From IMG/VR virus record IMGVR_UViG_3300033463_000007, positions 159,865 to 223,864 of that record: DNA of 64,000 nt. One strand, given 5' to 3'. A program made the position numbers and the translations under genes. The DNA is from a virus (lineage: Duplodnaviria; Heunggongvirae; Uroviricota; Caudoviricetes). The notes beneath the pieces were generated by a model that did no database searches, was not told the origin of the DNA, and saw nothing but the letters and a program-made list of their open reading frames with translations. How positions within the stretch are numbered: position 1 is the stretch's first letter; each line of letters begins with the position of its first letter. Shown here piece after piece: positions 135 through 59,272 of the stretch.

Positions 135-1187
135 ATGGTAACTAATAATATACAAATGGCATTTGGTGCTTTAAAGCCAAAAAAAGATATTCGAGAATTT
201 AAGGCTATTACAAACAAAGCTGCGCAAGTTGTTGATATTCCAGATGAATTTGAATTAACTATGCCTCCTGTTAAATCACAAGGACAAGTAGGTAGTTGTG
301 TAGCTCATTCAATTTCTCTTGCTATAGAATATTATAATAAGTTGCAAGAGGAAACTGACATAACTTTTAGTACTGGATATATATATGGTAACAGACGAAA
401 TCAACGTGGGCATAACGGAAGCGGTATGTATGTTGATGCAGCACTTAGTGCTGTTGTTAAATGGGGAGATGTAGCTAAAGATAAATTTTCTGAAAATATA
501 GAAGTTCCAGAAGCTATTACATTGTTTGAAGAGCGTGCTTTTGATTTAGCTCCAGAAGCCTACCCGAATAGATTTACGGAATATTTTGCGCTTAAATCTG
601 ATGAACAAATTAAGTTAAATCTTATGCAAAATGGACCAGTTGTTTTTAGTATTCCATGATATAAGGATTATGCTGTAGAGGCAAAAACATATATATTAAA
701 ACATACTAATAATGCAACATCTGGCGGTCATTGTATGGTTATTTATGGCTGAAATAAGGATGGTTGAAAATTTCAAAATTCTTGGGGCACCTCTTGGGGA
801 AATAGGGGTCGTGCCATTTTGCCATATGGAACCAAAATGTCCACTTGTTATGGCATTAAAGATACAATTATGGCAAGAGCACATGAGAAACAATTAGCAG
901 AATTAAAAGAAAAGTTAGAGAAATTAACAGAAAATTTAGAAAATAAAGAAAAAGAATTACAAAAAACTATAGAAAAATTAAAAGTTCTTGATAAGAATAA
1001 TGCAGAACAAGCAGAAGAGCTTCAAGAACTTAAAGAATCTAAAACAGCTCTTACTAAAGAAATTAATAGTTTACAAAAACAGATTAAAGAATTGCAGATA
1101 CAAAATGAACAACTTGAAAGCCTAAGAGCAGAATTATTTGCAATTAAGAAACCATTTGAAAAAATGCCAAAATGATTAGTAAAAATA
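135..1187 (+). CDS. Papain-like (C1 family) cysteine peptidase with C-terminal coiled-coil; contains in-frame TGA codons read as Trp
   Basis: QGQVGSCVAHS Cys motif, GGHCMVIYG-W-NKDG-W-KFQNS-W-G His/Asn region where the three W are TGA; ORFs 135..659 and 819..1175 are in same frame and joined only if TGA is sense; coiled-coil KEKLEKLTENLENKEKELQK tail. Confidence 0.65.
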
Positions 1188-1240
1188 ATTAATGCTATTC
1201 TTAATTTATTTAATTAATTTATAAATGGAAGGTTAGTTAT

Positions 1241-2413
1241 ATGAGTATTGTTATTAATAATAGATCATATAATAATATAGATGCACTGAGAGTAAAATCT
1301 TTAGAAGATGGGGGATCTATTTCAGAAAAATGATTTTATTCTGCTGATAAGTCTCAGGCAAAAATAGGTGAACCATCTTCTTCTGAAATTAAAATAATTA
1401 CTCCGGATGTTAATTACGTATCATTGAGTCAAGTCACCATTCCGCAAATTAACTCTGTTAATTTAGACCCTTCTAAAATTCAGGCTGGCCAAACGATTAC
1501 AATTGGCTGAGCAGGGAATCCGGCTGCTTTATATTCTATCACTGGTACATATACTAATGATGCCACAGCAACAGAATATGATATTCGTAAGGGTAAAATT
1601 GCCTATGTAAAAGGGCAGCGATTAGTTGGTGTATTAACAAGTAGTGGCAGCGCCGGAGAAGAAACTTTAAAAATATCTTCTCTTGCACAATACCCGACAC
1701 GAAACGGTGAGGGTTATTATGACTATGCACAAATTCTGGATGATTCAGATGTAACTGGTTTAAAAGCAGAAAATATTGTTTGTGGAAAAACAATATTAAC
1801 TGATCTTTATGGCACTTTTGGTTCTTTAGCAATTCCATCACAAGCAGCAGATGAGGCTAGTATTCTAGAGGGTAAAGTAGCAAACGTCTATGTTTATAAT
1901 GAGGAAACAGGTGAAGAATCTCTGAGAACAGCTGTAGGTACTATTAGGACTTGGCCTGAAACAGTTTATAATCCTGATAAAAATAATGATAGAACAATTC
2001 CAGCCCAAAGATATATTGCTGAAGACTTAGTAATAAAAAAAGTTAATATAGGTCCCGTGGATTCACAAACACAACAGGTGACTGCTAATCAAATGTTAGC
2101 AGGTACTTCTTTGGCAGTCGGCTATGATGGCACGCCAGAGGGTCTTCTTAGTATAACTGGCACCATTCCCACAAATCCAAACTCTGGTTATACTATTACC
2201 CCGGGTACTTCATCAATAACACTTTCTGGCCCATCTTATATTAGTTCTGATATTACAATTATAGGTGATACCGATTTAGTTACTAATAATATACTGGAGG
2301 GTATTACTATTTTTGGTGTTACCGGAACTCTAAAATCAGAGGAGACTATTTATACAGAATTATGAACAAGAATATATGGTACTCCAGAGCCTGTGGCTGA
2401 AGCTATATTTTAA
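1241..2413 (+). CDS. Tail fibre-like repeat protein (TGTYT module family)
   Basis: RBS GGAAGG upstream of ATG; continuous frame through 4 TGA codons; repeated motif ITGTYTNDATATEYDIRKGKIAYVKGQRLVG shared with neighbouring genes. Confidence 0.5.
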
Positions 2414-2460
2414 ACTAAAAATAGTTTTCTAATAGATAATATTAAAAGGATATTAAAAAT

Positions 2461-5400
2461 ATGCCAACAAATAAAGAAAACTTTATAAATAAATTAAATA
2501 CCCTAGCTGATGCTGTTAAGACCAAGAGACCACTAGCTGAGGGTACGGATTATACTATTAATAATATTGTTGATGCAATTAGTAGTTGGGAGCTTAGACG
2601 AGCAGAAGAAAGCCCAACAGTTGATTTAGATTTATCTAATGGCAATCAGGTAATTATACCTACTGTAAGTGGTAATGTCTTATCTCAGGTCACTATTCGG
2701 CAACCGGTAGATCAGGAAGGCCATAATATATTTATTTCTGATAATATTAGGTCTGGAATAACTCTTGGAAATGTAACCGGAACTTATACAGCTGTAAATG
2801 AGAATGCTGTAACAGCTGCAGATATAAGATTTAATAAAAAAGCCTTTGTAAATGGTAGCGATGTAATAACTGGTTCCATGTCAGATTATAGTGGAACTAC
2901 TTTAATTGTTCCAACTTTTACAAATGGTACACCCTCACAGTCATCAACATCCCATATAGCTACACAAAATACTTTTGTAACAAGTAATATTAATTATGCA
3001 AATATTTGGTATTCAAATTTAGACCCCACAAAGATTCTTAATGGTGAAACAGTCAATATTGGCACTACTGATGATATTAGTACACCAAAAGTTACTGTTA
3101 CTGGTACTTACACTCCAGCAGTTGAAACTCTAATTCTTGACCAACCAAATGAACCCGGTGGTTTAAAACTTAATTATCAAAATACAGTTGGTTATGATTT
3201 ACCAGTACAAATTTTAACACACAGCCAAGGTAAATTAATAGAACAAGTTATATTATATCGTCCTGAAAATCTTATACCGGAAAATATTAAATATAATATA
3301 CCTATTGCAGGTACTGCTGGTACCTTTACAAGTAGTTCTACTGTTTCCAGTGGACAAATTGCGGCAACAGCTGATAAAATACGTTCTGGTTATTCCGCAT
3401 GGGTAAATGGTACTGAAATACAAGGTTCAATACCTAATAAAAGTGCAGAGGTTTATAATCCAACTATTGCATCGTCAAGTTCCGGCACAGCCACTTTAAA
3501 TCCTATAACAATTAGTTCTGGTCAATACTTAACTGGAAATCAAACGATTACAGCGACAGAGGTAAGAGGGTTAAATCCTGAATATATTGTTTCTGGGCAT
3601 AGCATTCAAATTGGCTATACACAAAATGATACTTTTAGACCAATTCATACAACACAAGGCTCTTACACAGGTATTGCTTCAGAATATATTGAGCCAACAG
3701 CTATAGAGTTTAATGAATTAATTTTCCGCACTACTACAAGTGGAATTACGATAGATTCAGATGTTGTAGTAAATCCAGAACCTGGGCATGCTTTTAGTCA
3801 GGTTAAAATTAAAAGGCCAACTGATATGTCTGCAGTTGCTGCAAAAATTGCTTATAATCAAACTATACACGGTATTTCTGGTACATTTTCTTATGAAGCA
3901 AATAATTCTATAACTGCCAGTTCAATTAGAAATGGCAAAGTTGGTTTTGTTAATGGTAATAAAATTATCGGTACAATGCTTGAGCGTGATGTCGGTAATA
4001 TTGGACTTTCTACTACAGATTATACAATAGCAGCAAATCAATATTTAGCAGGTGCTCAGACAATTTATGGTGCCAGAATAACAACCACGGATACTGGCGG
4101 TACAATAGCTGTTAATGATTTTAATGCTTTAGCCGGATTACTTGTTAAAGATGTAACTTTAGATATTGGTGATACTGGTGATACTGATAGACTTGCTCAT
4201 ATTGTTGGTACATATGATAACCAAAAACCGGAAGAAGTTGGAAATGTAACATTAAATTTCTGAGATTCAACACATTCAACTTATTATGATCAATTAGACA
4301 TTAATCCAAGCACACAAAATACAGTTTTTTCTCATGTTTTAATAAATAAACCAGCGACTTTAATTAAAGGAAATATTGCATCTGGAGTTTCTATCGCTGG
4401 TGTTACAGGTACTTATACAAATGATGCAAATGCAACATCAAGTGACATTTATCCTGGCAAAACTGCTTATGTACAGGGCACTAAAGTTTCTGGCAGCATG
4501 CAAACACGTGCCGCTGCAACAATTTATCCGAGTGCTTCAGACCAAACAATTGCTTCAGGTCGTTATTTAACTGGTACTCAAACAATAAAAGCAACGACTG
4601 TTAAAGCATATGACCCAGTATTACAAGAAACTGTTCCGTTAGATCCTGATTATATTATTAAGGGTGTTGTTGTAAAAGTTGGTGATGAAGTTAATAATGC
4701 TCGTGTTGCTAGTATAACTGGTACTTTCGATTATACTGAATTTATTGAAGGTCCAAGAGAAGTTGATTTATCATTAGCTTCTGGCAATCAAACTATAAAT
4801 CCAGAGGCCACTGGATATTCAATGAGCCAAATAATAATTAAGAAGCCCGTAAATTTATTAGCTAGTAATATTAAAAAAGATGTTGAAATTGCAGGTATTA
4901 CTGGAACATTTGAAGAAATAAAAGTATTAGAAATAGATGCAAATTACAATTCAGCATCAACTATTAATCTCACTACTGCACAAAAGAATGTTTTTACTTC
5001 TTTGGCTTTAGGTAGTACTATTAAATTAAAATTTACACAATCTAATAGTATTAAATATTTTACTAAAACCTATTCAAGCACCTCCGGTAGTGAAACATTT
5101 ATTGTTCTTACTGCACCAATTTCAAATGATTTTGAATGAAGTAATACTAAATATATTAGAACAAAAACTGAATTATGTTATATTGCTATTGCTAATAATA
5201 CAGCAGAATTACATTTGGTATATAAACAAGGCTCGTCTGCTGCTTTATTAGGTGAAATTAGGCCTAATACTGATCTTGTATTAGACCCAAGCACTGAAAC
5301 ACGTATTTATGATTATACAGATGCTACAATAGGTATTCCTACATCATTAACGGTTACAGGTCTTGCTTATACAGCTGTTCAACCAGAGCAGCTTTTACAG

Positions 5401-5688
5401 GGGACAACATTAAATATTGGAACCGCAGCGGATCCAGATGCGGTTTATACTGTAACAGGTACTGCTATATCAGAATATGACTTATATTCATTATTAAATA
5501 ATGCTAAATGGGGTAATTCTGGTGATCTTGCAGGTACAACTGTATTATTCTCTAATACACCTGAGCTCACAAATATTGGTACTAAAGCAGTTACATTTAC
5601 AGCTGGCTCTGATAACTATACAAGTTTAACAATTAATAATAATGAAATTAAATATAATGATACTCGTGTATATGGCGAAGCTGAGTAA
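2461..5688 (+). CDS. Large tail fibre / receptor-binding repeat protein (~1075 aa) formed by ORFs 2461..4263, 4498..5139 and 5215..5688 joined through TGA=Trp
   Basis: All three standard-code ORFs are in the same frame and separated only by TGA codons (4261, 5137); repeated x-I/V-TGT-Y/F-T beta-strand motifs; ends with TAA. Confidence 0.55.
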
Positions 5689-5703
5689 AGGAGAAATATA
5701 AAT

Positions 5704-7116
5704 ATGGCAAAAAGTTGACTTGCTGGAGCTTCAAAAAAAATTACGATAACTGGCGGAAATGACAGTACAAATACAGATATATTAAAATATATGCAATTAA
5801 ATGCAGGCTGAATACAAACACTAGCTACACCAGTATTATCATTAACAGACTTAGCTATTACTTGGCCAAGTGTAACTAATAGGACCTCTTATACTGTTTA
5901 TGTTAATAATCAGTCCTATCAAGATCAAGTAATGATAAATTCTTTTGATATATCAGACTTTACACCCGGGACTTATTCAATTACAGTAAAAGCTATTGGA
6001 AGTACTTATTATCAAGACAGTTCATTAAGTACACCTTTTGTATATACATACTTAACTGCTCCAACAAATCTTGCAATAACAAATGATACAACATTATCTT
6101 TTACAGGTTCTTCTGGTGCAACTCATTATAGAGTTATTGTAGATTCTGAGACAATTCTTGGTATTTGTAATAGTTCTCCAGTTGACTTAGCTAGTTTTCA
6201 AGGCTGGGGTAATCTGACAGCAGGTGGTCATACAGTACAGTTACAAGCATTTGCTGATAATGCACGAGATAGTCAAGTTTCAACGGGTGTATTAGTTAGA
6301 ACTGGTGGTTATAATTTAACAGTTTCTACTTGACAAGAATCTGGTGAAGATAGTGGTCAATTTCAAGTTTTATATTCAGATAACTCCTCTGCTTGAGTTG
6401 GCTCTGGTACAACTAAGCATGTTTTACAAGTACTAGACTATAGATATACTTGAGATTATCAACAATCTTGAGAAATTAATGATGCCCAGCCATCATTACC
6501 TTATACACTTGCTGCAAATGCCTCTGCCTCAGTTTATTCTGAATCAAGTGGTGGCGGTGGGACCTGCTTTATTGCTGGTACACAAATAACTCTTGCTGAT
6601 GGTACCACAAAAGCTGCTGAGGATATTACTTATGATGATTCTTTGTTAGTTTGAAATTTCTATACTGGTACTTTTGATACAGCTAAACCCTTATGAATTA
6701 AGAAAGAAGAATTATCACCCTGTTATAATTTAGTCACTTTTGACAATGGTAAAACAATTGGTTTTGTTGGACCTGGACAAGAGATCGGTTATCATAGAAT
6801 TTATAATAATGAAGCTAAACAATTTACACATACTGGTGTAGCTGATACACCGGTAGGTACAACTTCTTTTGATGTTTTTGGACAGCAACCAAAAATAGTA
6901 AGTCAAGAAGTTAAATGAGAAAGAGTAAAATATTATAATATAATAACAGATAAATACTATAATTTATTTACAAATAATATTTTAACTTCTTGTATGCTAT
7001 CTAATGAATATGAAATATTAGATAATATGACTTATAATATAAATAATAGATATTTAACAGATAAACAAATTACTGATTATCTACAAAAAATTGAGGATTT
7101 AAGACGTCCAAATTAG
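5704..7116 (+). CDS. Structural protein with fibronectin-III-like repeats and C-terminal Hint (intein/hedgehog-like) domain
   Basis: ATG with RBS AGGAGAAATATAAAT upstream; many in-frame TGA; motif GGGGTCFIAGTQITLADGTTKAAEDITYDD is a classic Hint block A; ends TAG at 7114. Confidence 0.45.
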
Positions 7117-7129
7117 AAAGGATATTATA

Positions 7130-7579
7130 ATGGTTTATATTTTAGAAGGTACACATGGAGTTGGTAAAACCGAACGAAGTACAACTTTTGGAGTTCCTGT
7201 TGCAAATATTAGAAATGATACTCGTGCAAGAAATATTACACAAGTAACCTCATTACTTAATAGTTATATTAATATAGATGCTGTATTTGATAGATTTTTT
7301 ATGCTATCTTTTCCAGGAGAAGATCATGATAAAAGGGTCTCCCAATGTATTGCAATTAATAATTATTTAAAAACTAGATCTGATGTAACTTGTATTTTAT
7401 ATATCTGTGACCGCGAAGTTGCTTGACAAAGGTATCAAAATACAGAACATCCAATTGAGCGACGCGTTGATAGAGCTGGTTTTGATGCAGCTTATAATTG
7501 ATATCAAGAAATTATTCCATATATGGATGCTTTTCAAATAATAGATACCACCAATGCCAGCAGTCATCATTCTGGCTAA
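7130..7579 (+). CDS. P-loop nucleoside/nucleotide kinase-like protein
   Basis: Walker A GTHGVGKT near N-terminus; two in-frame TGA (W) extend ORF 7130..7426 to TAA at 7577. Confidence 0.4.
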
Positions 7580-7602
7580 TAAGATATAGGAGATATTATT
7601 AA

Positions 7603-8382
7603 ATGCTAATAAGTGATTTAACAGGGACAACGTGGACGATAAACTCATCTGTAACGGCAACGTCGGGGCAATTCCGTTCCTCAAATATTGCTTTCACCGT
7701 TAACTACGGCGATGAGTGGAATGAAATCCGGATAGGCTATTATGCCTACCACCATGACCTCGTTGCTTCGGCAGACAGGGCGTGCGGTTTTAATGTTACG
7801 GTGGGCTTTTATTTTAACCTCGAAAACACGACGATAACCTTTACAGGCGGCACAGACGCCACCAACTCAACCCTCATCTCTTGGCTTGAAGCAAATGCTA
7901 CTAATGTTACGCCTGAACCAACACCAACAGAGAATATTTTGACACCCAAAGAGCAATTTTTTAAGAATATGAATGACCTTGCTCAAAGTATTATTGACAA
8001 AGCGGGTCTTGCAGCTGGCTTAAAAACGTTACAGGAGTTAAAAGAAGCTGTTGATGATATTGTTGTAGCCCAGGAAAGTGAAAGAAGGACATTATCATTA
8101 AATATGGCTAGCGGAGATCAAGTAGTTAACCCAACAGATGCTGATAAAGTAATGACACAGGTAACAATTACTAAACCAAGTACGTTTCTTGCAAGTAATA
8201 TTAAAGATGATATAGAAATAGGCGGAATTACTGGTACTTTTACTGACAGTACAACTGTTTCTACCGGACAAACGGCTGCAGCTGCAGGCCAGCTGTTAAT
8301 AGGATATTCAGCTTGGGTAAATGGTGTAGAAATACAAGGAACAATTCCAGTATATACTGGTGGAATTGTTACTACTGAATAA
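7603..8382 (+). CDS. Tail fibre-like protein, chimeric: GC-rich N-terminal module fused to conserved NIKDDIEIGGITGTFT C-terminal module
   Basis: C-terminal 90 aa nearly identical in pattern to 3300-3440 region of the large fibre gene; N-terminal 330 nt has strikingly higher GC and uses TGG for Trp. Confidence 0.5.
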   Translation: MLISDLTGTTWTINSSVTATSGQFRSSNIAFTVNYGDEWNEIRIGYYAYHHDLVASADRACGFNVTVGFYFNLENTTITFTGGTDATNSTLISWLEANATNVTPEPTPTENILTPKEQFFKNMNDLAQSIIDKAGLAAGLKTLQELKEAVDDIVVAQESERRTLSLNMASGDQVVNPTDADKVMTQVTITKPSTFLASNIKDDIEIGGITGTFTDSTTVSTGQTAAAAGQLLIGYSAWVNGVEIQGTIPVYTGGIVTTE

Positions 8383-8399
8383 TTTAGGAGTATAATAGA

Positions 8400-9200
8400 A
8401 TGGGAAAAAATATTTCTGTTAATGGCAGACAGTATAATTCAATAACAAAATTAAAAGTACAAAAAAATATATCTACAGAGAGCTATCATGTTTATGATTC
8501 TTATTACTCTGATGATTTATTTGAAAATACTAAATTAGTAGCGCCTTCTTTAGAGGTGCAGACAATTAACCCATCTGGTGATAATGTTGCTCTTAGTCAA
8601 GTAGTAGTACAAAGTATCGGAGCCGAAAATTTAATTCCAGAATATATTCAGGCGGGAAAAACAATTTCAATAAAAAGTAATGGTTTAGATGATAATCCTG
8701 ATTCATATCTTATGTCGGTTACAGGTACTTATACAAATGATGCAACAGCTACTGCTAATGATATCTTAGTAGGAAAAACTGCTTATATTAAAGGTGAAAA
8801 AGTTGTAGGTGCTAGATTAACTTCTGGTGGTATTATCCCAGAAGGTATTGCCTATATTACAACCACAGCACCAACTAATGTTTATAATTTTGCAGTTGCA
8901 AAAGTTGATAGCGAATTTCTTAGACCCGAAAATATTAAACAGGGTATAGAAATTTTAGGTAAAGTTGGTACTTATGGTGGTATCGATACAACAACTGCAA
9001 TAGATTTTTCAGCAGTTCATTTAGGCTATTTTTATAATGATGCTTTTTATACTGATAAAGCACATGTACATTTAATAGAGCCAGTTGATGGCAATACTTA
9101 TATGGATAAAGTATCTGCCAATGCTTATGATTATATAAATAATAGATATACTATTACCACGTCCTGGGTGGTAAATGTTGATCCAGCACAATTAGACTAA
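8400..9200 (+). CDS. Tail fibre-like protein (TGTYTNDATATANDILVGKTAYIKG module)
   Basis: Shares repeat modules with genes at 1241, 2461, 4376 region. Confidence 0.5.
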   Translation: MGKNISVNGRQYNSITKLKVQKNISTESYHVYDSYYSDDLFENTKLVAPSLEVQTINPSGDNVALSQVVVQSIGAENLIPEYIQAGKTISIKSNGLDDNPDSYLMSVTGTYTNDATATANDILVGKTAYIKGEKVVGARLTSGGIIPEGIAYITTTAPTNVYNFAVAKVDSEFLRPENIKQGIEILGKVGTYGGIDTTTAIDFSAVHLGYFYNDAFYTDKAHVHLIEPVDGNTYMDKVSANAYDYINNRYTITTSWVVNVDPAQLD

Positions 9201-9345
9201 ATGAATACAATTATTTTATGTTTAAAATAAAGTATTCAGTTTTATTGAATGCTTTATTTTATTCTTTTATTGTATAATATAATTGTATTTATAGGATCAA
9301 TAGAATCTGATAGATTCTTGATGATAATAAAGGAGTTTAATTTAA

Positions 9346-9951: not shown

Positions 9952-10005
9952 ATACTTTAAAGAGAATAAAGATAATTAAAAGAGTATTGGATATTCAATA
10001 CTCTT

Positions 10006-10020
10006 TTATTGTATAATATA
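10006..10020 (+). promoter_or_regulatory. Terminator-promoter cassette: hairpin 9980-10005 then TTATTGTATAATATA
   Basis: AAGAGTATTGGATATTCAATACTCTT hairpin immediately followed by extended -10. Confidence 0.5.
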
Positions 10021-10048
10021 ATACTATAGTAATAAAAGGAGATTTATT

Positions 10049-10270
10049 ATGTCAAATTTTGAAGAGCCTTCTGTAAAAGCACATATAGGAACTGGTGGAA
10101 TTAGCTTTACTGGGCTTTTAACTATTGTTTTTATAGTTCTAAAACTTTGTGGTGTTATTGATTGGAGTTGGTTTTGGGTATTAAGTCCAACTATTTTTGG
10201 TATAATTTTATTAATATTGATTATATTTATAGTAGCTATTATTATTGCAGCTAAAGAGAGACATAATTAA
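10049..10270 (+). CDS. Small two-TM membrane protein
   Basis: Highly hydrophobic 73-aa ORF with good RBS AAAGGAG. Confidence 0.35.
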   Translation: MSNFEEPSVKAHIGTGGISFTGLLTIVFIVLKLCGVIDWSWFWVLSPTIFGIILLILIIFIVAIIIAAKERHN

Positions 10271-14101: not shown

Positions 14102-14144
14102 AAAGACCTAATTTTTAGGTCTTTTATTGTATTATATAATATAA
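14102..14144 (+). promoter_or_regulatory. Terminator-promoter cassette
   Basis: AAAGACCTAATTTTTAGGTCTTT hairpin then TTATTGTATTATATAATATA. Confidence 0.5.
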
Positions 14145-14166
14145 ATTTATTTTTAGGAGTTTATCT

Positions 14167-14691
14167 ATGAAATTTGTTATAAAAGAAAAAACACCAGCAG
14201 AAAATAAGGCTTTATGTGAAAAATATCCTTTTCTTACTTGGCGTGGAGATCCGTTATATGTTGGAAGTTATTCAAAAGATAGAGAGCCAGATTATAAATA
14301 TACATGGGAAGATGAAATGCCAGATGGCTGGCGAAAAGCTTTTTGTCCACGAATTTGGGATGAGCTTAAAGCTATTCTTGAAAAAGCTGACTTTGTAAAT
14401 GAGTTTGAATTTATGCAAATAAAGGAAAAGTTTGGTACTTTAAGACTCTATTATTGTGGTATACCTGCTGAAATAAGTAAAGAGCTTTCAGATTGGGAAG
14501 ATAAATATGATAAACTTTCTGAACAAACTTGTATTATTTGTGGAGAACCTGCCACACAAATGACTACAGGGTGGATTACATATGTTTGTGATGATTGTGC
14601 AAAAGAAATGGGTGGTAGAACAATTCCAATTAAAGATTTAGATGAGTATTATGATAATCCTAAAAAATACTGAGAAACACATACAAATTAA
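14167..14691 (+). CDS. Hypothetical Cys-rich protein
   Basis: ORF extended through terminal TGA to TAA at 14689. Confidence 0.35.
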
Positions 14692-17141: not shown

Positions 17142-18131
17142 ATGCAAAGAATGTTATCAGGAATAAAACCTACCGGAACTCCTACTTTAGGAACTTATTT
17201 AGGTGCAATTTTACCCTTTATAAGATACCAAAATGAATATGAGCTATTTATTTTTATTGCAGATTTACATGCCTTAACAACTTGTCAAAATGCTAAAGAA
17301 TTAAGAGATAATATTAATTTATTAGCTAAGATTTATCTAGCTGCTGGATTAGATTGTGGACAAAATAAAACTGTATTATTTAAGCAATCTGATGTATTAC
17401 AACATAGTCAGTTAAATTGGATTTTAAGTAATTATACACTAATGAGTGATCTTGAAATGATGACTCAATATAAACAAAAATGTCAGCAACTTGCAGCTAG
17501 ACAAGGAGTTAATGTATCTTTATTTACTTATCCTGTTTTAATGGCTGCAGATATTTTACTTTATAATACAGATTTAGTGCCTTGTGGTCAAGATCAAAAA
17601 CAACATATAGAATTAACACACGAGCTTGCCCGAAAATTTAACTCTATGTATGGTGAAACTTTTAAACTACCAAAGCCATATATAACCAAAACCGGCGCTA
17701 AAATAATGAGTTTATCTGACCCGACTAAAAAAATGAGTAAATCAGAGTCAGATAAAGGAACAATTTATTTAACTGATACTAAGGAAGTTATTTTTAATAA
17801 ATTTAAAAAAGCTGTCACTGATAGTGAAGGAAAAATTTATTATAATCCAGAAACTAAGCCTGGAATAAGCAATTTACTTACTATTTATGCTGCAATAAAA
17901 GATATTTCTATTCAAGAAGCTGAAAATATATTTAAAGATGAAAAAGATTACGGTAAATTTAAAAATGAAGTAGCTCAGATAGTTTGGCAATATTTAGATA
18001 CATTACAGTATAATATAAAACAAATTTCTGATAAACAAATATTTTTAACATTAGATGATGGTCAAAAACAGGCAGCTAAAATTGCATCAGAAACTCTATC
18101 CAAAGTATACAAAAAGGTGGGATTAAGATAA
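17142..18131 (+). CDS. trpS: Tryptophanyl-tRNA synthetase
   Basis: Class I aaRS: N-terminal MLSGIKPTGTPTLGTYLGAI, KMSKS motif KKMSKSESDKG; 329 aa; no TGA codons. Confidence 0.85.
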   Translation: MQRMLSGIKPTGTPTLGTYLGAILPFIRYQNEYELFIFIADLHALTTCQNAKELRDNINLLAKIYLAAGLDCGQNKTVLFKQSDVLQHSQLNWILSNYTLMSDLEMMTQYKQKCQQLAARQGVNVSLFTYPVLMAADILLYNTDLVPCGQDQKQHIELTHELARKFNSMYGETFKLPKPYITKTGAKIMSLSDPTKKMSKSESDKGTIYLTDTKEVIFNKFKKAVTDSEGKIYYNPETKPGISNLLTIYAAIKDISIQEAENIFKDEKDYGKFKNEVAQIVWQYLDTLQYNIKQISDKQIFLTLDDGQKQAAKIASETLSKVYKKVGLR

Positions 18132-18134
18132 AAT

Positions 18135-19196
18135 ATGTTTGATAGGCTTGAAAGTATATTAAATAAATATGATGAGCTTTCAATGAAATTAAGTTCTTCA
18201 GAAATTATTTCAAGTAATTTATATCAGCAATATAGTAAAGAGTTAGCAGATATTCAAGAAATTGTTGATACTTATTCTGCTTATAAAGACGCACAGGATT
18301 ATTTAGAACTACTTAAAGAAGATGAAGCTAAAAATACTGATTTGGAATTAAAAGTACTATATAATAGTGAAATTAAAGAAACTCAAAGTAAATTATCAGA
18401 GCTAGAAAATAATTTAAAATTATTATTATTGCCAGCTAACAAGGATGATTCCAAAAATATTATTATGGAAATTCGTGCAGGAGTTGGCGGAGATGAAGCA
18501 GCTATTTTTGCAGCAGATCTTTTTAATATGTATTTAAAATATACACAAAAACAAGGTTGGAATGTTTCAGTTAGTAGCTATACTGAAGGTGTTCTAGGTG
18601 GTTTTAAGGAAATTATCTTAAGTATTTCTGGTAAAAACGTTTATCAAAAATTAAAATATGAAGGTGGAGTACATCGGGTACAACGAGTACCAGAAACTGA
18701 GGCTAGAGGCAGAATTCATACATCAACAGCAACAGTTGCAGTACTTCCAGAAAGAACAGAAACAGAAGTTATAATTGATCCAAAAGATATTACTATTGGT
18801 TTATTTCATTCCGGTGGGGCTGGTGGTCAAAATGTAAACAAAGTTGAAACAGGTGTACGTATAACACATATTCCTACCGGAATGGTAGTTGCTTGTCAAG
18901 AAGAGCGGTCACAGCTACAAAACAAAGAACGTGCTTTTGAAATATTGCGCGCAAAGTTATGGGATTATTATAATACTCAAAATATTAATTCTGAAATAAA
19001 CCAACGAAATAGTATGATTGGTACTGGTGATAGATCAGAAAAAATTCGAACTTATAATTTTCCGCAGCATCGTATAACCGACCATAGAATTAATTATACT
19101 ACTTATAATATAGAAGAAGTATTACAAGGTAATTTAGATGATTTAATTGAACATTTACAAATTGCAGAAAATGCAAAATTGTTAATTAATCAATAA
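18135..19196 (+). CDS. prfA: Peptide chain release factor 1
   Basis: GGQ motif (SGGAGGQNVNKVETGVRITHIPTG), PxT-type tripeptide region RVPETEARGRIHTSTATVAVLPE, C-terminal HRINYT; 353 aa; no TGA codons. Confidence 0.85.
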   Translation: MFDRLESILNKYDELSMKLSSSEIISSNLYQQYSKELADIQEIVDTYSAYKDAQDYLELLKEDEAKNTDLELKVLYNSEIKETQSKLSELENNLKLLLLPANKDDSKNIIMEIRAGVGGDEAAIFAADLFNMYLKYTQKQGWNVSVSSYTEGVLGGFKEIILSISGKNVYQKLKYEGGVHRVQRVPETEARGRIHTSTATVAVLPERTETEVIIDPKDITIGLFHSGGAGGQNVNKVETGVRITHIPTGMVVACQEERSQLQNKERAFEILRAKLWDYYNTQNINSEINQRNSMIGTGDRSEKIRTYNFPQHRITDHRINYTTYNIEEVLQGNLDDLIEHLQIAENAKLLINQ

Positions 19197-19232: not shown

Positions 19233-19269
19233 TTTGCTAAATTATATAGTAAATATGGAGGATTTTATT

Positions 19270-20127
19270 ATGTTAAAATTTAAAGTACCAAAGCAACAAG
19301 ATTTAGATTTAGATCAGTTGATTTTTGATAGAATTACTTTTGGCAATACACAACCATCACCAAAAGATGATCGAGATTATATTGCGCAAGCTAAAGATTG
19401 ATCTAAAATAAAATTTCCAAAAGAATATAGAGCACCAAAAACAGAAGTTTTAAATCAAGAAAATTATGGGTCTTGCGTAGCTCATTCTTGCGCCACCGCT
19501 TTAGCCCAAGGAGAACAACTTATTTCAAATACCCACAATAATTATTCTCGCGGTTATATTTATGGTAATAGAAAATCAACTGACTTGCAAACTGAGGGTA
19601 TGATTGTTAGGCAGGCATTAAAGCAACTACATAATTGTGGAGATGTTCTATATGATGATTTTCCATATAATAAAACTTATCCTATGGTAAAAGCTTTAAT
19701 TGATATTGATAGAGAATATTTAGCAAATAAAGCAAAGCAGTATACTATTTTTGATTTTTATAGGTGTTGTGATGAAAATCAGTTAAAAGATGCTATTATA
19801 TCCTCCGGTGCAGTTATAATTGTAGTTCCTGTTTATAGTGATTTTGCCCGTGATTTACATAAAACTCAATCATGGGAACTCCGAGGCTATCATGCAATGG
19901 CTTTAGTTGGTTGAACTGCTGATAAATGAATTGTACAGAATTCTTGAGGCTTAGAATGGGGTTATGATGGTTGTTTATTAATGGATATGGATTATCCCAT
20001 AATTGAAAGCTGAGGCATAACCGTTAATAAGGAACTTAAAAAGTCACTTTGATATAGAATAAAAACAATTTTTAAACAATTTTGAAATTGAATTAAATAT
20101 ATCTGAAATAAAATATTTAAAAAATAA
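19270..20127 (+). CDS. Papain-like (C1) cysteine peptidase, paralog of 135..1187
   Basis: NYGSCVAHSCATALAQ Cys motif, GYHAMALVG-W-TADK-W-IVQNS-W-GLE-W-GYDG with W=TGA; ORF continuous only under TGA=Trp. Confidence 0.6.
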
Positions 20128-20216
20128 TTTGCTAAATTAATTAGTAATGCAGTAACTGTAAAAAATCTATTATTAGCTGCATTAGTTTAATAATTAGAGG
20201 AGAGATTTAGAAATAA

Positions 20217-20663
20217 ATGGATACTTGATTAGTAACTATAATTTCATTAATCGGGAGCACTGCATTATCAACAATAGTTGGCTTAATTATAAAAAACAGC
20301 GTCTCTAAAAAAATGGATGAACAAAAAGAATTACTTGAACTTCGTGAATCTAAAGGGCATCAAGAGCGTAAGCAAGAAATGACAGAAATTATAAAAGCTG
20401 AGTTATTACCCGTTACACAGCAGCTTGATTCATTATCAGAAGCAATAAAAAAGAATAATGCCGGTACTGTTACATTATTAAGAGAGAGCTTAAAGCAATC
20501 CAGAGATCATTTAATGGAAAAAGGAGTTGCCACTGCCTCTGAAGTTGCAAGTTGACATGAACTATATAATACTTATGCAAAGCTAGGCGGAAATAATTTT
20601 AAAGATTATGTTGATGCTTGAAAAGATGATGTAGATGGGCTACCAAGAGAAAAAAGTAAATAA
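20217..20663 (+). CDS. N-terminal transmembrane protein with charged coiled C-terminus (holin-like / lysis accessory)
   Basis: MDT-W-LVTIISLIGSTALSTIVGLII TM segment; three TGA=W; preceded by TTTGCTAAATTAATTAG motif. Confidence 0.35.
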
Positions 20664-20692
20664 AATTTTTAAATATGGTAAAGGAGTAATGT

Positions 20693-21073
20693 ATGGAAAA
20701 ATTTAGTTTAATTTGTGATTTAGTTATTGCTATTATTGGGGTAATTCCAACAATTATTTCATTAATTTATTTAGTTAGAAATATTATAAAAAATAAAAAT
20801 TGGAATATGATCATGAAAATGGCAATGGAAGCAATGACTGCTGTAGAAGCTTATGCTATTGCTAATCCTAACATGACATCTGAGGATAAACTTAATATGG
20901 CATTAGAGGCTATCAAGAAAGCCTGTGGATCTGCTGGAATTACAGTAGATGATATTCTTATTAAACAAATTATTGATTATATTTCTGAAATGTGCAGCTG
21001 GGCAAAAACTGTTAATACAAATGTAGAAGTAGTTGAAGTTAAAACTGTTATGCTTGCAGCAAAAACAAAGTAA
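20693..21073 (+). CDS. Holin-like protein (LL-H type architecture)
   Basis: N-terminal TM LICDLVIAIIGVIPTIISLIYLV followed by amphipathic helices. Confidence 0.4.
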   Translation: MEKFSLICDLVIAIIGVIPTIISLIYLVRNIIKNKNWNMIMKMAMEAMTAVEAYAIANPNMTSEDKLNMALEAIKKACGSAGITVDDILIKQIIDYISEMCSWAKTVNTNVEVVEVKTVMLAAKTK

Positions 21074-21095
21074 TTTAACAGGAGGATTTATTTAA

Positions 21096-21461
21096 GTGTT
21101 TTATATTGCAGATAATGGAATTATTAAGCTGCATGCTGGTGATTCTGGAAATTTTCATTTTCAAATCAATATTGGTTCCACAATAAATCCTCAACCTTAT
21201 GCATTACAAGCAAATGATAAAATTTATTTTTCAGTAATGGAACCAAACCAGCCTTTTGAGCTTGGTGTTTTAAGAAAAATTTTAACAGTTGATGATTTAA
21301 TTGATGAAACAACAATTAATATTCAATTTATAACAGAAGACACTGAAAGGTTAATTCCTGGAATTTATTATTATGAAATGAAATTAGTGCTTATAGATAA
21401 TGAAGAAAATACTCATTATTACACTATTTGCCCAAAAACTAAATTTTATATTCTTGATTAA
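21096..21461 (+). CDS. Hypothetical protein
   Basis: ORF with RBS AGGAGGA. Confidence 0.3.
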   Translation: MFYIADNGIIKLHAGDSGNFHFQINIGSTINPQPYALQANDKIYFSVMEPNQPFELGVLRKILTVDDLIDETTINIQFITEDTERLIPGIYYYEMKLVLIDNEENTHYYTICPKTKFYILD

Positions 21462-21529
21462 AAATAGTTTATTTAAAAATTAATAGCCCTCTCCACTTTA
21501 GGGGGCTTTTTTATTCGGAGAGATACTTT

Positions 21530-23023
21530 ATGAAGAAGACAGATAATTATCAACAAAATATAGATGAAAATAGTGATAAAAATTTTGAATCAATTGGGTA
21601 TGATGAACCAATTGATTTATTATATAGTGAATTAGTTGCCTCTAAGGAAACACCAGAACAAGTAATTATTTATACTGATTTTACACGTAGAACAGAATTA
21701 CCTACTGAAAATGATAAATATGTTAAATCATATATTCGTGAAGCTGATGGCGGATGAAATTTAGCTATTAAAGGTAAGCCTACTCATGAATTATGCACTG
21801 TATTAAGTAATTGTGTAGGCTGAGCCGCTGGTAGATATAATGAAATTTATGATGAAATTAAAAATATCACAGGTCATCATTATCCTTATTTAGTTTGTAA
21901 TGCAGAGGATTTTCCAGTTCGAGCCAAAAAATCATATCCTGATATTATAATGGATCAAACTCCTGAACCTGGCGCAATAATGGTCTGAGAAGGTATTGGT
22001 AGTCTCGCAGGACATGTTGCTATTGTAGAAGAAGTGATAGATAATAATACTGTATATACTTCTGAATCAGGTTATGGTAGTACTATTCCAATGAGATACC
22101 AAAAAAGAGTTAATGATAATGGTTGTTGAGGCATGAACACAACAAATTATAAATTTACTTGCTTTATGCACAATCCAGCAGTTGAAAAAACTATTATTAA
22201 TATAGTGCAACCAGTTGAAAGAGATGTACTAATAGATCAATTATATATTGATACACCTAATTATTCATATATTAGAATGGATCATAGTACAGCTTCTAAA
22301 GCCATAGGGCAGTTTAAACAGGGATATTTTAATTATACCGATAGTTTTATTGGCGATGATTATGTTTGATATAAGCTTGCTGAAAATCAATGAGTTGCTA
22401 AAACAGGCCATATCCAAGTATATCCTAAAGTAAATCCAAGTATAGAAAAAATTGAATTGAATGAAGACTATACTAATACATATTATGCAGGTGATTTTTT
22501 ACAGTTTAAAATGATAGGTTTAAATTGCAAAGAATATTGAAATACCGGGGAAGTAAAAGATGTTGTTTATAATAATTATAAAATAATACCAGCAAATGGC
22601 ACAGCTTTAACTGTTAATGATACAAAAATTATTATTAATTTTGAAAATAATTTAACTCTTGAATTACCTCTTGAGATAAAAGTTAAGGTTGAGCCAAAAG
22701 TTGTAAAAATACAGCTTTCTGGCACGTATAAAACTGAATATTGAGAAGGCGAAAAACTTGATTTAACTGGTCTTATTGTTGAAGCAGTTTATGATAATGG
22801 TGAAATTACTTCATCTATACCTTATATTGCTTCACCACAGGCAAATAGTTTGTTACCATTTATGGGGACTCAAAACGTTGTAATTGCTGCTTATCTTGAC
22901 AACAAAGGATTTTCAACTTCTTTTAAAATAAATGTAAAACATAAACAAACTGCAGCCGAAAAATTCAGTCAAATGATACAAGCACTAGCTAACTTTATTA
23001 GAAGTTTATTTAATAAAAAGTAA
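21530..23023 (+). CDS. CHAP-domain peptidoglycan hydrolase with C-terminal Ig-like repeats (lysin / tail-associated lysin)
   Basis: CTVLSNCVG-W-AAGRY (Cys) and GAIMV-W-EGIGSLAGHVAIVEEV (His) CHAP motifs; many TGA=W; C-terminal KVVKIQLSGTYKTEY-W-EGEKLDLTGLIVEAVYDNG Big-like domain. Confidence 0.6.
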
Positions 23024-26954: not shown

Positions 26955-27113
26955 TTATATTTCCTTATTATTTATATATTGTTTCAAGATTGTTCTAATT
27001 AAACTAGACAAGCTTCTATCTTCTTTTTGAGCAATTTTATTTATTTTATTGTATAATTCATTATCAAGCTGTAATGCAATAGTTTTTTTAGAACTATTTT
27101 CTTTATTAACCAT
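26955..27113 (-). CDS. Ribbon-helix-helix (CopG/Arc-like) DNA-binding protein, 52 aa (not in ORF track)
   Basis: RBS GGAGTAACTACA-ATG; MVNKENSSKKTIALQLDNELYNKINKIAQKEDRSLSSLIRTILKQYINNKEI: beta-strand TIALQLDNEL then two helices; stop 3 nt upstream of topoisomerase ATG. Confidence 0.5.
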   Translation of the reverse strand: MVNKENSSKKTIALQLDNELYNKINKIAQKEDRSLSSLIRTILKQYINNKEI

Positions 27114-28430: not shown

Positions 28431-29456
28431 ATGTCAGTAAAAGATGCGTTAATAGCTACTCATTTATTTTTAGAAAACGACTACTTTTTTCGGTATATTG
28501 ATTTAATTGAAAAAAATAAAAATAGAGTAAAACAAAAGTATAAAACTCAAAAACATCATATTATTCCAGCTATTGCTTTTAAATTATATAATTGAGAAGG
28601 TATTGATGCACCAGAAAATTTAGTTAATTTATTATATAAAGATCATATTTTAGCTCATTATTATTTAGCTTTAGCTACTAAAACTTCTGATTTTCAATAT
28701 AAAATGATTGCTGCTATAAATTTTATTTTAGGTAAAGCTAAACAAAGTAAAATAGATATACAAGAACTACAAACTTTTATCTTAAATTTGGAAAATTATC
28801 AAAATTTATATGAAAATTGAATTAAAGAAAGAAGTTTATTACTTCACTCCAAATTATTAGGTCATGAAACTTCTGAAGAAACAAGAAAAAAAATAAGTGA
28901 AGCAAATAAAAATAAAATTTATATTTATAAAGAAAATATAGTACGTGCTGTTCATAAAGAAGACTTACAATTATTTTTAGATAATGGTTGAACTTTAGGA
29001 AATCCTAACTGTCAAAAAAGAAAACAGACCACAGGACAGACTATTATACATAAAGAAGAAATTGAAAAATATATTTTTAAAGAAGACTTATCTTTATATT
29101 TAGCTAATGGTTGAATATTAGGACGAAGTGACCAACATAAAAAAGCAACACAGCAAGGAACACAAGCTTATTATGATAAATTAACAAAAGAAGAAAAAAT
29201 TAATAAATGTGCAACTAGACAAAATCAACACTGAGAAATGTCAGAAGAAACAAAGAAAAAAATAAGTAATGCAAAGTCTGGAAAAAAGCAATCTGAAGAA
29301 CAAAAACTTTTAAATAGTCAAAATAAAAAAGATACAATTTGAATGACTAATGGTCAACAAGATATTATGATTAAAAAAGATTTAGAACTTTATTATTTAG
29401 ACCAAGGTTTTATTCGAGGAAGAACTAATTATAAAAAAAATAAAAAAGGAGAATAA
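28431..29456 (+). CDS. Free-standing HNH homing endonuclease with NUMOD3-like repeats (341 aa, 9 in-frame TGA=Trp)
   Basis: KHHIIPAIAF HNH core; repeated SEETRKKISEANK / SEETKKKISNAKSG (NUMOD3) and LQLFLDNG-W-TLG / LSLYLANG-W-ILGR repeats; preceded by TTTGCTAAATTAATTAG motif; invisible in the standard-code ORF track. Confidence 0.55.
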
Positions 29457-30358: not shown

Positions 30359-30436
30359 ATAAATTTTAAATAGCAGATTAAATTCTGCTATTTTTTATTG
30401 TATTTTATATAGAAAAATTTAAATTGGAGATTTACT

Positions 30437-31448: not shown

Positions 31449-32582
31449 ATGATCGGTTTTATTTTTGGAATTATTTTTTTGCTTGTTGGGATAACAGTCG
31501 GAATCATTTTGGCAGTTAAATCAGAAGAAGATTATCAGGAAGATGAGTATGGAAATACTATTCGCGATTCAAATGGCAAACGAATTCGTATAAAAGTATA
31601 TCCATATAAAAAATATGCTTGGATAGCTTTTGTTGGCGGTACAGTTTTGAGTATTATTTTAATATTCTGTGGTTGTACCGTAAGCGTTGAAACTGGAAAT
31701 ACCGGTGTAGTTACTACCTTTGGTAGAGTAGAAAATTATACTCTTGAGGCAGGTTTTCATCTTAAAGCACCTTGGAATTCCGTAATTTCTATGGATAATC
31801 GTGTTCAGAAAGCTACAGTTGAACTTAGCTGTTTTAGTTCTGATATTCAGGAAGTAGAAATGAAATATACATTGAATTATCAGATTGATAAAGCAAATGC
31901 CCAGGAAATTTATAAAACTATTGGTTCAGATTATTATAAAACAATTATTGAGCCCAATATTTCTGAGGCAGCAAAAGTTATTACTGCTAAATATACTGCA
32001 GAACAGCTTGTACAGACTAGAACAGAGCTAGCTGTTGGAATTGAATCAGTACTTACTGAGGCTCTTGCTTCTTATAATATTAAGGTTTCTTCCACAGCTA
32101 TTGAAGATCTTGATTTTACAGATTCTTTTACTAATGCTGTAGAAGCAAAGCAGGTTGCCGAGCAGAAGAAAAAGCAGGCTATTATTGAACAAGAGCAAGC
32201 AAGACTTGAAGCTGAAAATGCAAAAGCCATTGCTAAGACACAGGCAGAAGCAGCTGCAGAAGTAGCCAGAATTCAGGCCGAGGCAGACCTCGCAGTACAG
32301 CAGATTAATGCAGATGCCGCTGAATACACCGGCCGTAAGGAAGCTATGGCAACATTGTATGCTCTTGCAGGTGTAAATGGTTGGACAGTTGTAATTGATG
32401 AGAATGGCTCTGGTAAACTTTATAAAGCAGATGGTAGTAGTATTTCTGTAGATGAACTTAAAATTGGTACAGAAAATCTAATTAAATACTATTATACTCA
32501 GACTTGGAATGGTATTCTTCCAGAAACTTATGTTGGAAATGATAATGTAAGTTCAATTCTTGTTGGAAATACAGTTAAGTAA
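31449..32582 (+). CDS. SPFH (band-7 / prohibitin / HflK-like) domain membrane protein
   Basis: N-terminal TM; TGNTGVVTTFGRVENYTLEAGFHLKAPWNSV SPFH core; Ala/Glu/Gln-rich coiled-coil (AEAAAEVARIQAEADLAVQQ). Confidence 0.6.
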   Translation: MIGFIFGIIFLLVGITVGIILAVKSEEDYQEDEYGNTIRDSNGKRIRIKVYPYKKYAWIAFVGGTVLSIILIFCGCTVSVETGNTGVVTTFGRVENYTLEAGFHLKAPWNSVISMDNRVQKATVELSCFSSDIQEVEMKYTLNYQIDKANAQEIYKTIGSDYYKTIIEPNISEAAKVITAKYTAEQLVQTRTELAVGIESVLTEALASYNIKVSSTAIEDLDFTDSFTNAVEAKQVAEQKKKQAIIEQEQARLEAENAKAIAKTQAEAAAEVARIQAEADLAVQQINADAAEYTGRKEAMATLYALAGVNGWTVVIDENGSGKLYKADGSSISVDELKIGTENLIKYYYTQTWNGILPETYVGNDNVSSILVGNTVK

Positions 32583-32686
32583 GAATAAATTAATAAATAA
32601 TATTAAAAAGGATAGTATTTAATTAAATAAATATTATCCTTTTTATTGTATTATATTATTGAAAATTATTTTTGGAGATTTTTTAA

Positions 32687-34009: not shown

Positions 34010-34101
34010 TTAGTGTAATATATAATTTAAAAGGCAAAGTGCTTAAATATTAAGCACTTTTATTGTATATAATTATATATATTCAAAATTTGGAGGATTA
34101 T

Positions 34102-49775: not shown

Positions 49776-50181
49776 GGGGGTGTAAAGGTTTCGACAGGGT
49801 TAAGAAAGTGATAGTATACGCAGGAGTTATTCACCTTACGAATCGGTAATTTAAAATAAACGACAATACAATTGTTACTTTTAGTCCTTTCTTAATTAAT
49901 GCACTCTCTTCTATGAGGGCTGCTGCTTAAGATATTATAGGCGCCAAAACAATACGCTGGTGATCAAGCAAGTATTTGAGGTCAAAGAACGGGTCACATA
50001 AAGTTGTCCAACTTTAAAATGGACTGGTGGAGACGGATAAAACCGGCGCAACTCATTTAATATATTGAATTTGCTTATTTTACATTATATTAAATTATTT
50101 TATTAAATAAGCTAGTGCGTAAGTATTATACTATTTTAGTATTAATTTTGGACAGGGGTTCGATTCCCCTCACTTCCACCA
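49776..50181 (+). ncRNA. ssrA: tmRNA (ssrA) with long tag ending -AAA
   Basis: 5' GGGGGTGTAAAGGTTTCGACAGGG (cf. E. coli GGGGCUGAUUCUGGAUUCGACGGG), 3' GGACAGGGGTTCGATTCCCCTCACTTCCACCA; acceptor with G3:U70; tag ORF ...GAC AAT ACA ATT GTT ACT TTT AGT CCT TTC TTA ATT AAT GCA CTC TCT TCT ATG AGG GCT GCT GCT TAA = (N)DNTIVTFSPFLINALSSMRAAA. Confidence 0.75.
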
Positions 50182-50185
50182 ATGT

Positions 50186-50261
50186 CTGGGTGTAATTCAG
50201 TTGGTAGAATGCGTGATTTGGGATCACGATGCCGGATGTTCAAGTCATCTCACTCAGACCA
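50186..50261 (+). tRNA. tRNA-Pro(UGG)
   Basis: CTGGGTG-TA-ATTC-AGTTGGTA-GAAT-G-CGTGA-TTTGGGA-TCACG-ATGCC-GGATG-TTCAAGT-CATCT-CACTCAG-A-CCA. Confidence 0.7.
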
Positions 50262-51191: not shown

Positions 51192-51198
51192 AAACTTT

Positions 51199-56216: not shown

Positions 56217-56687
56217 ATGAAACCAGACCTTGGAAAAAAATTTGAGGAGCTTTTTAAGTTAGACTGAAAAAGATGCTTTCCAGATACTTTTATTTTTAGA
56301 CTAAAAGATGATTTAGCTGGATTTAAAAATGCTAGTCAAAATCCTTGTGATTTTATGTGTTTTCCAGGAAACTACTTATTTTTAGTTGAAACCAAAGAAC
56401 ACCATGGCGCCTCGATCCCGTTTACAGCAATTCCTCAATATGAAAGATTATTAAAATATAAAGATTTACCAAATGTATATCCCGGTGTTATAATCTGATT
56501 TTCAGAAAAAGATCTAGTAATGTGAGTTAGCATCAATGATATGGAAAAAATGGTTTTAAATGGTGAAAAATCAATTGGAATAAGAATGCTAAAAAATAAA
56601 TTGTATAATATAATAGTTTTACCGTCAGTTAAAAAACGGGTATATTTAGAAGTTGATTATACACCTTTAATACCCAAGGAGGATTAA
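56217..56687 (+). CDS. PD-(D/E)xK nuclease (RecU-like Holliday junction resolvase candidate)
   Basis: PCDFMCFPGNYLFLVETKE D...E-x-K motif; 3 TGA=W. Confidence 0.35.
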
Positions 56688-59205: not shown

Positions 59206-59272
59206 TTAAAAGGGCCAATTTTTAAGGCCCTTTATTGTATATTATATTAAGAAATTTATAAATCGAGGTGAA

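Follow-up and report, generated by a model that had tools for sequence, protein, structure and literature searches.

The phage DNA considered here is a stretch of 64 kb from IMG/VR record IMGVR_UViG_3300033463_000007 (hereafter the window) with a mean GC content of 29.6%. Its gene 7603–8382 encodes a chimeric protein in which an N-terminal domain (N-domain) is connected through a PEPTP linker to a C-terminal half (C-half) made of a helical segment and a fibre-like repeat module (Table 1). Composition strongly supports the view that the N-terminal module is foreign, and the GC-rich stretch of around 260 to 300 bases was almost certainly brought in by recombination; the C-half has native composition and is a paralog of neighbouring repeat proteins.

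Table 1. Features of gene 7603–8382 and of related or neighbouring genes in the window (aa, amino acids; GC3, GC content at third codon positions).
Feature	Position	Strand	Evidence and remarks
Gene for 259-aa chimeric protein	7603..8382	+	N-domain, PEPTP linker, helical segment, fibre-like repeat module
N-domain, aa 1–100, of the DLTGTTW…ITGGTDATNSTLISWLEANAT family	7603..7902	+	Homolog searches, alignment A1, AF2 model
Conserved N-terminal motif DLTGTTW	7615..7635	+	Alignment A1
Compositionally foreign core, codons 8–94; GC 49%, GC3 0.57	7624..7884	+	Change-points, codon counts
Conserved C-terminal motif ITFTGGTDATNSTLISWLEANAT, strand and helix	7834..7902	+	Codon switch from GC3-rich to AT3-rich at 7884/7885
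Thr/Pro linker NVTPEPTPTENIL, native-like codons	7903..7941	+	Similar linkers follow the domain in many homologs
C-half, native composition	7942..8379	+	BLASTP vs gene 2461–5688, DNA repeats D11 and D15, alignment A3
C-half parts: helical segment, then repeat module LSLNMASGDQ…NIKDDIEIGGITGTF…GYSAWVNGVEIQGTIP	~7945–8055 (helical segment)	+	
1075-aa repeat protein, paralog of the C-half	2461..5688	+	Last ~50 residues are the first half of the native domain copy
470-aa protein	5704..7116	+	9 in-frame TGA; first ~40 residues are the second half of the native domain copy
Native AT-rich domain copy, split over two genes (second half KKITITGGNDSTNTDILKYMQLNAGW)	5524–5664 and 5707–5814		Profile of homologous domains
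149-aa P-loop kinase-like gene, wedged between fibre-like genes	7130..7579	+	2 in-frame TGA
266-aa paralog of the same repeat family	8400..9200	+	phrog_38337; DNA repeats D1 and D2
Class-I Trp/Tyr tRNA synthetase (TrpRS)	17142–18131		PF00579; written without TGA
RF1-type release factor	18135–19196		PCRF and RF-1; written without TGA

Foreign composition of the N-terminal module

A sequence-only reading of this DNA had described the first ~110 codons of the gene as visibly richer in GC than their surroundings, and sliding-window analysis bears this out: the region 7610–7930 has a GC content of 47.4% against the window mean (standard deviation (SD) of 300-nt windows 4.7%; z=3.8), and windows 7621–7930 are the GC maximum of all 64 kb (48.3%). 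GC3 is 0.47 over the first 112 codons and 0.20 over the remainder of the gene. Among 842 reference windows of 110 codons from 35 genes (mean GC3 0.150, SD 0.051), the top eight all lie within gene 7603–8382, and the best value elsewhere is 0.31. The excess is concentrated in codons 8 to 94, 50 of whose 87 codons end in G or C (binomial P≈9e-20 at the native rate of 0.15). We also compared each part of the protein with the same peptide re-encoded using the phage's own codon usage: the N-domain has 46.7% GC where 33.5±1.1% would be expected (z=11.8), an excess at synonymous sites, and the C-half has 37.4% where 36.2±1.0% would be expected (z=1.2). The remainder of the gene is accordingly not at about 28% GC, as had been stated, but at 37%, which its amino acid composition accounts for. 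Foreign codon usage therefore sustains the proposed horizontal acquisition of the N-terminal ~95 to 110 codons; that it was recent, as also proposed, is unproven and would follow solely from the absence of amelioration.

The right edge of the foreign tract was placed at nt 7884 by a maximum-likelihood GC3 change-point (log-likelihood ratio 42) and the left edge at ~7622 by a nucleotide-level change-point, so that each edge falls within one of the domain's two conserved motifs. None of the six codons 2–7 and none of the seven codons 95–101 end in G or C, and over codons 95–112, which encode LEANAT and the linker, there are only two G/C-ending codons among 18 (P≈6e-5 at the foreign rate). The left edge is ambiguous: in gene 7130–7579, next upstream, 5 of the 11 final codons are G/C-ending (P≈0.009, post hoc), and the tract may start in that gene, at some point between ~7547 and 7624.

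The use of TGG instead of TGA for Trp in the GC-rich part had been read as the mark of a standard-code source. Gene 7603–8382 contains four TGG and no TGA and ends with a TAA stop, and the Trp codons of the patch are indeed all TGG (three of the four). However, the fourth TGG lies in the native half, gene 8400–9200 and many other genes of the window also lack TGA, and at the ratio of 20 TGA to 10 TGG in the recoded block 135–7579 three TGG out of three have P≈0.04. The claim of a standard-code source depends on these three codons and is weakly backed. The second-highest GC peak of the window (45%, 32021–32470) lies inside the SPFH/Band 7 gene 31449–32582; since its GC3 is only ~0.27–0.29 and the GC content at first codon positions is 0.51, this peak mostly reflects amino acid composition and is no second foreign island.

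A sharp compositional shift inside one gene of a metagenome-derived sequence is also what a chimera of metagenomic assembly would leave behind. However, identical DNA of the gene is present in five independent assemblies of different samples (sources Logan, ENA (megahit), and JGI), whose contigs match the window at 99.97–100% identity along as much as 18.4 kb and share the same junctions. With an intact reading frame and a complete domain in addition, this as good as rules out a chimera. The identity across samples equally speaks against the variable region of a diversity-generating retroelement (DGR) or another target of targeted hypermutation. Such an element would fit the hypervariable middle and invariant ends of the N-domain family, and a protein with an Mtd_N domain adjoins family members in the phage contig L015, but no repeat of 7610–7930 that could be a template copy is present in the 64-kb window, and the variable segment of ~260 nt sits at the 5' end of the gene where typical variable regions are found 3'. 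Together these observations leave a DGR hardly more credible than a chimera.

GC-rich islands of AT-rich genomes are often structured RNAs, and the synonymous codons might then be kept by selection on the nucleic acid itself, be it for RNA structure, an embedded noncoding RNA, an antisense gene, or translation kinetics; short antisense open reading frames (ORFs) are indeed found at 7397–7684 and 7809–7949. Against this, Rfam gave no match at E≤1 within 7603–7930, the folding energy of the region is no better than that of shuffled sequences (z=-0.14), the sense ORF is uninterrupted and has hundreds of homologous proteins, and no such bias is seen in the AT-rich domain copy that the phage itself carries. 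We consider selection of this kind very improbable.

The native C-half and a split second copy of the domain

Searched separately by BLASTP, the C-half proved to be a native paralog of the neighbouring repeat proteins, as the idea of a module grafted onto a paralog had implied. Its residues 114–254 (numbered in the full protein) are collinear with residues 3–145 of the protein of gene 2461–5688 (31% identity, E=2e-18), and further alignments cover residues 220–325 and 766–817 of the same protein with up to 54% identity over 52 residues; at the DNA level, stretches within repeats D11 and D15 are 77–81% identical. The paralogous part begins right where the foreign module and its linker stop. The neighbouring genes 1241–2413, 2461–5688, and 8400–9200 match phrog_38337 (E 1e-8 to 2e-21), a family without assigned function, and share the repeat module with the C-half, but the match of gene 7603–8382 itself is not significant. 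While paralogy is thus well founded, the label "tail-fibre" comes only from gene order in other phages: no protein of the block 135–9200 has an annotated tail function, and proteins with the repeat module are found directly 5' of holin-amidase cassettes in contigs of temperate phages. The structure model of the C-half is poor (pLDDT 59, pTM 0.25). The fibre-like block is headed by a gene for a papain-like peptidase (Peptidase_C1, phrog_16701) with a long coiled coil and four in-frame TGA codons (135–1217).

Import of the whole gene from a source richer in GC would require that the 3' half was later gene-converted by resident paralogs or ameliorated faster than the 5' half. The stretches of 77–81% nucleotide identity with gene 2461–5688 and a GC3 of the C-half slightly above the genome mean (0.20 compared to 0.15) are in line with such a history, but the composition of the C-half is within expectation, its protein identity to the paralog (31–54%) is too low for recent conversion, and amelioration should be uniform along the gene. 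In addition, no GC-rich full-length homolog with >60% identity over both halves was found in the protein search, and we regard import of the entire gene as unlikely.

The phage carries a second, native copy of the domain that is split over two genes. A profile built from 110 homologous domains matches the C-terminus of the protein of gene 2461–5688 with its positions 5–57 and the N-terminus of that of gene 5704–7116 with its positions 67–102 (E=5e-6). The two halves are in the same frame and are separated by a TAA stop codon (5686–5688) and a 15-nt spacer with the Shine-Dalgarno sequence AGGAGA, and this arrangement is identical in each assembly that covers it (L001–L003). Both halves have the GC content expected from the phage's codon usage (z = 0.7 and -0.7). 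The split could be due to gene fission, split-domain docking, or stop-codon read-through, and the two halves may re-form one domain that docks the two proteins non-covalently. Around residue 290 of the 470-aa protein encoded by gene 5704–7116, a GGGGTCFIAGTQITLADGT… motif resembles an N-terminal splicing motif of the Hint/intein type; Pfam gave no family at E≤0.01 for this protein.

The DLTGTTW…ITGGTDATNSTLISWLEANAT domain family

The N-domain belongs to a previously undescribed family of domains of ~105 residues that occur, in gut and rumen communities, both in phage fibre neighbourhoods and in bacterial surface proteins. Members have a near-invariant start, DLTGTTW, and a near-invariant end, ITGGTDATNSTLISWLEANAT, enclosing a middle whose sequence and length are hypervariable (alignment A1). 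An exhaustive phmmer search of 1.84 billion cluster representatives retrieved at least 448 proteins at E≤1e-3, of which 40 reach E≤1e-10; family representatives were clustered at 50% identity. We relied on this search because a word-indexed one queried with just the N-domain did not recover even its own sequence. The best non-self identity to the N-domain is 54% (P0036). Pfam and PHROG gave no significant match to the N-domain, a profile search of the PDB reached E=0.68 at best, Foldseek with the N-domain model found nothing better than E=1.1 in the PDB and only an uncharacterised protein in BFVD (E=0.13), and a literature search for the motif strings returned no paper. The AF2 model of the N-domain (46 sequences; pLDDT 71.6, pTM 0.63) is a small beta sandwich closed by a C-terminal helix, with low confidence in the variable middle (residues 49–69).

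In most homologs the domain starts at residue 1, but it also forms tandem arrays of two to five copies or lies at the extreme C-terminus so that the protein ends right after …ANATQ. Its genomic contexts include a position beside the Mtd_N protein in L015, one between giant unannotated proteins (L010), and one immediately 5' of a prophage's lysis peptidase gene (L020). The bacterial chromosomal form consists of a signal peptide, the domain, a PEPTPSTG linker, and a transmembrane anchor (P0007, P0008, and P0019). Two of these proteins, P0007 (L018, 8001–8540) and P0008 (L008, 8001–8531), are paralogs from the same metagenomes, and their DNA flanks are 89–96% identical up to DLTGTKW and again from ITGGTDATN on, while no alignment is possible across the ~180 nt between them. 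The pattern is that of a cassette with the same bounding motifs as the GC-rich patch of the window and resembles cassette-type variable surface proteins in that the two motifs enclose an unalignable core. Unlike the phage gene, P0007 and P0008 are membrane-anchored, chromosomal, and compositionally normal and are not phage fibre proteins. Their host is a bacterium of ~30% GC in which two of 14 called genes end in TGA.

Is GC-richness an intrinsic property of the domain? This candidate explanation was rejected, since domain GC3 tracks the genomic background at most loci. Values for domain and background are 0.19 and 0.21 in L008, 0.185 and 0.20 in L018, 0.14 and 0.11 in L010, 0.15–0.20 and 0.22 for the two copies of L015, and 0.29 and 0.32 in L021, in each case with the domain within about ±0.07 of its background, and in L012, a metagenome-assembled genome of the Oscillospiraceae with 54% GC, they are 0.61 and 0.56. 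The domain is thus AT-rich in AT-rich genomes, as seen in L008, L010, L015, and the split copy of this phage, and the window with 0.495 against 0.154 is an extreme outlier. Smaller deviations are found at L013, the locus of the closest homolog (0.37 against 0.25, a difference of +0.13), and at L020 (8001–8666, P0086), a prophage-like contig with 44.5% GC (0.27 against 0.475, a difference of -0.20). The anomaly at L020, an AT-rich domain in a GC-richer background, mirrors that of the window, and the two deviating loci suggest that movement of the domain across GC backgrounds may be recurrent. Calibrated on the loci at hand, a GC3 of ~0.57 in the foreign core points to a donor of roughly 50% GC.

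Origin and possible role of the mosaic gene in a TGA-recoded phage

The reading that we favour as likely is that gene 7603–8382 is a mosaic accessory fibre-like gene with a native C-half and a foreign N-domain derived by recombination, most probably through allelic replacement of a domain copy already in place. The C-terminal 146 residues would have arisen as a duplicate of the N-terminal ~145 residues (the helix and first repeat module) of the 1075-aa protein; the N-domain, or at least its variable core at ~7624–7884, would have come from a genome of ~50% GC belonging to another phage or a bacterium and replaced the resident copy by way of homology arms supplied by the DNA that encodes the motifs. 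Allelic replacement appears the most likely route because the phage has its own split copy, because the same layout exists in other phages, and because the codon switch lies inside the C-terminal helix of the domain. In L015, two genes have the order of domain, linker, and helix (…ETYFSIMSELAQTIAEKTG…, compare KEQFFKNMNDLAQSIIDKAG in gene 7603–8382). At motif level, the DNA encoding DLTGTTW in the window is 83–86% identical over 36–44 nt to the unrelated loci L013 and L021, and between unrelated loci motif DNA is 80–86% identical over 44–85 nt.

A less probable origin, to which we give a minor share of our confidence, is a de novo fusion in which a complete foreign domain with its linker was joined to a duplicated fibre N-terminus that had no such domain before. 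The paralogy starts at residue 3 of the protein of gene 2461–5688, where an ancestral paralog could have started as well; stand-alone repeat-module proteins without an N-domain exist (P0035–P0043); and the span that had first attracted attention, 7610–7930, corresponds to domain plus linker. What disfavours a fusion are the native-like codons 95–112, given that the GC-rich relative L012 uses GC-ending codons in LEANAT, and the recurrence of the domain-linker-helix order in the unrelated phage contig L015. The notion of a graft therefore holds insofar as a foreign module sits on a paralog, whereas its implication of de novo joining is disfavoured compared to replacement, on small codon counts.

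Several observations weigh against allelic replacement or limit the case for it. The codon switch inside the domain is read from few codons (0/6 on the 5' side and 0/7 to 2/18 on the 3' side), and the AT-rich 5' codons could reflect selection at the start of translation. Third positions of the motif DNA are identical between the window and L011 at 14 of 23 sites (counted by eye), and the identity of motif DNA is about what amino acid conservation and AT bias produce, so that it gives no independent evidence of recombination. Neither exhaustive phmmer nor scans of viral, metagenome, and genome collections with degenerate patterns found a donor: scans with the N-domain retrieved one distant member and no donor among the matches listed from metagenomes (L011), one distant member and no donor from GTDB genomes (L012), and tblastn of GenBank phages with the N-domain and with a consensus-like family member retrieved no family member. 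Nor did searches for relatives yield a sister genome that shows the locus before the exchange. GenBank phage DNA matched neither the GC-rich patch (distant mode) nor the first 20 kb of the window (near mode), IMG/VR scans with the N-domain and with the upstream and downstream genes found no relative of the phage, an IMG/VR scan with the C-half found two distant repeat-module loci and nothing else, and the protein of the downstream gene matched only repeat-module proteins of unrelated temperate phages; every contig recovered is at least 99.97% identical to the window. Finally, no fold in the PDB or BFVD matched the N-domain, and the C-half model is of too low quality for such a search.

The recipient of the foreign domain is a gut or rumen phage with a genome of at least 232 kb (the longest public contig containing gene 7603–8382) that reads TGA as Trp in part of its genes. 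When the window is translated with code 4, ORFs of 80 aa or more add up to 20,471 residues, up from 16,195. Only some genes contain in-frame TGA codons (135–7579, 19255–23023, 28431–29456, 50404–51192, 53102–53896, and 56217–56687), and the replication and nucleotide-metabolism genes of the window have none. The TrpRS and release factor genes stand directly 5' of TGA-rich genes with nine, three, and eight in-frame TGA (to 23023), some of which encode transmembrane segments.

These features match the "Jade" phages, a group of TGA-recoded gut phages of ~200 kb with predicted Firmicutes hosts whose "code-change operon" of TrpRS and RF1 sits 5' of the lysis cassette (Borges et al., 10.1101/2021.08.26.457843). 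Like that clade, our phage has low GC and a genome in the range of 200 kb, restricts in-frame TGA to late (structural and lysis) genes, and carries a standard-code TrpRS and RF1 operon directly upstream of TGA-rich lysis-like genes with transmembrane domains. We thus assign it to the "Jade" type by TGA pattern, operon, size, and GC content as compared to the published description; gene 7603–8382 and its compositional island are absent from that description (10.1101/2021.08.26.457843). ARAGORN detected no TGA-suppressor tRNA within the window, where it found only a phage-encoded transfer-messenger RNA (tmRNA; tag DNTIVTFSPFLINALSSMRAAA) immediately followed by tRNA-Pro(TGG) at 49776–50261. A recurrent intergenic motif, …CTTTTATTGTATWATATAAT… followed by ~20 nt, GGAG, and ATG, lies 5' of many TGA-free genes (9248–9297, 10002–10051, 14110–14169, 27035–27067, 30392–30433, 32629–32681, 34046–34095, and 59221–59267) and probably represents a promoter class of the phage.

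With regard to function, the original description of the module as a receptor-binding head domain finds no backing: it is N-terminal (residues 1–100) and has no relative of known function by sequence or fold. Several traits of the family would fit a binding or adhesion module: a conserved scaffold around a hypervariable core, the arrangement in tandem, exposure on bacterial surfaces, and a location in fibre neighbourhoods. The protein may have a place in the virion. A role in linking fibre proteins to each other would likewise be compatible with the N-terminal position and with the native copy being split. The scaffold would consist of the conserved ends, with the swapped core exposed at the surface, and an exchange would then alter binding to a ligand on the host surface or to a fibre partner; compatibility with the fibre apparatus would be maintained by the native C-half. 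A more far-reaching and tentative possibility, which we think unlikely to hold in full, is that the domain is a horizontally mobile binding cassette whose ends act both as scaffold and as recombination handles, so that phages and bacteria trade the core and retarget adhesion, with the split copy perhaps docking two proteins. If so, the exchange would span phages of differing GC content and genetic code as well as bacterial surface proteins.

Mosaicism of tail fibres through horizontal module exchange is classic in P2, Mu, lambda, and T-even phages. Gene 7603–8382 resembles these mosaics in that its segments have different histories, one of them with the composition of another genome, and in that the breakpoints fall at domain or motif boundaries where conserved flanks offer homology. 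It differs from them in that the exchanged piece is N-terminal and not the usual C-terminal receptor-binding tip, in that the domain family is uncharacterised, and in that the recipient is a TGA-recoded jumbo phage with a GC3 gap of ~0.4. The phenomenon is ordinary mosaicism of the tail-fibre type in a described class of recoded phage, and it is the domain family itself that is new.

The finding adds to our understanding of tail-fibre mosaicism and does not alter it. It is a clear and measurable case of a single domain bridging a large compositional gap (GC3 0.57 for the domain core, 0.15 for the recipient) to enter a late gene of a jumbo phage with a recoded stop codon, and the presence of this foreign domain indicates that recoded phages still swap structural modules with GC-richer genomes. 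The parts that deserve attention are the split native copy and the cassette-like domain family, which is a reasonable candidate for a determinant of host range.

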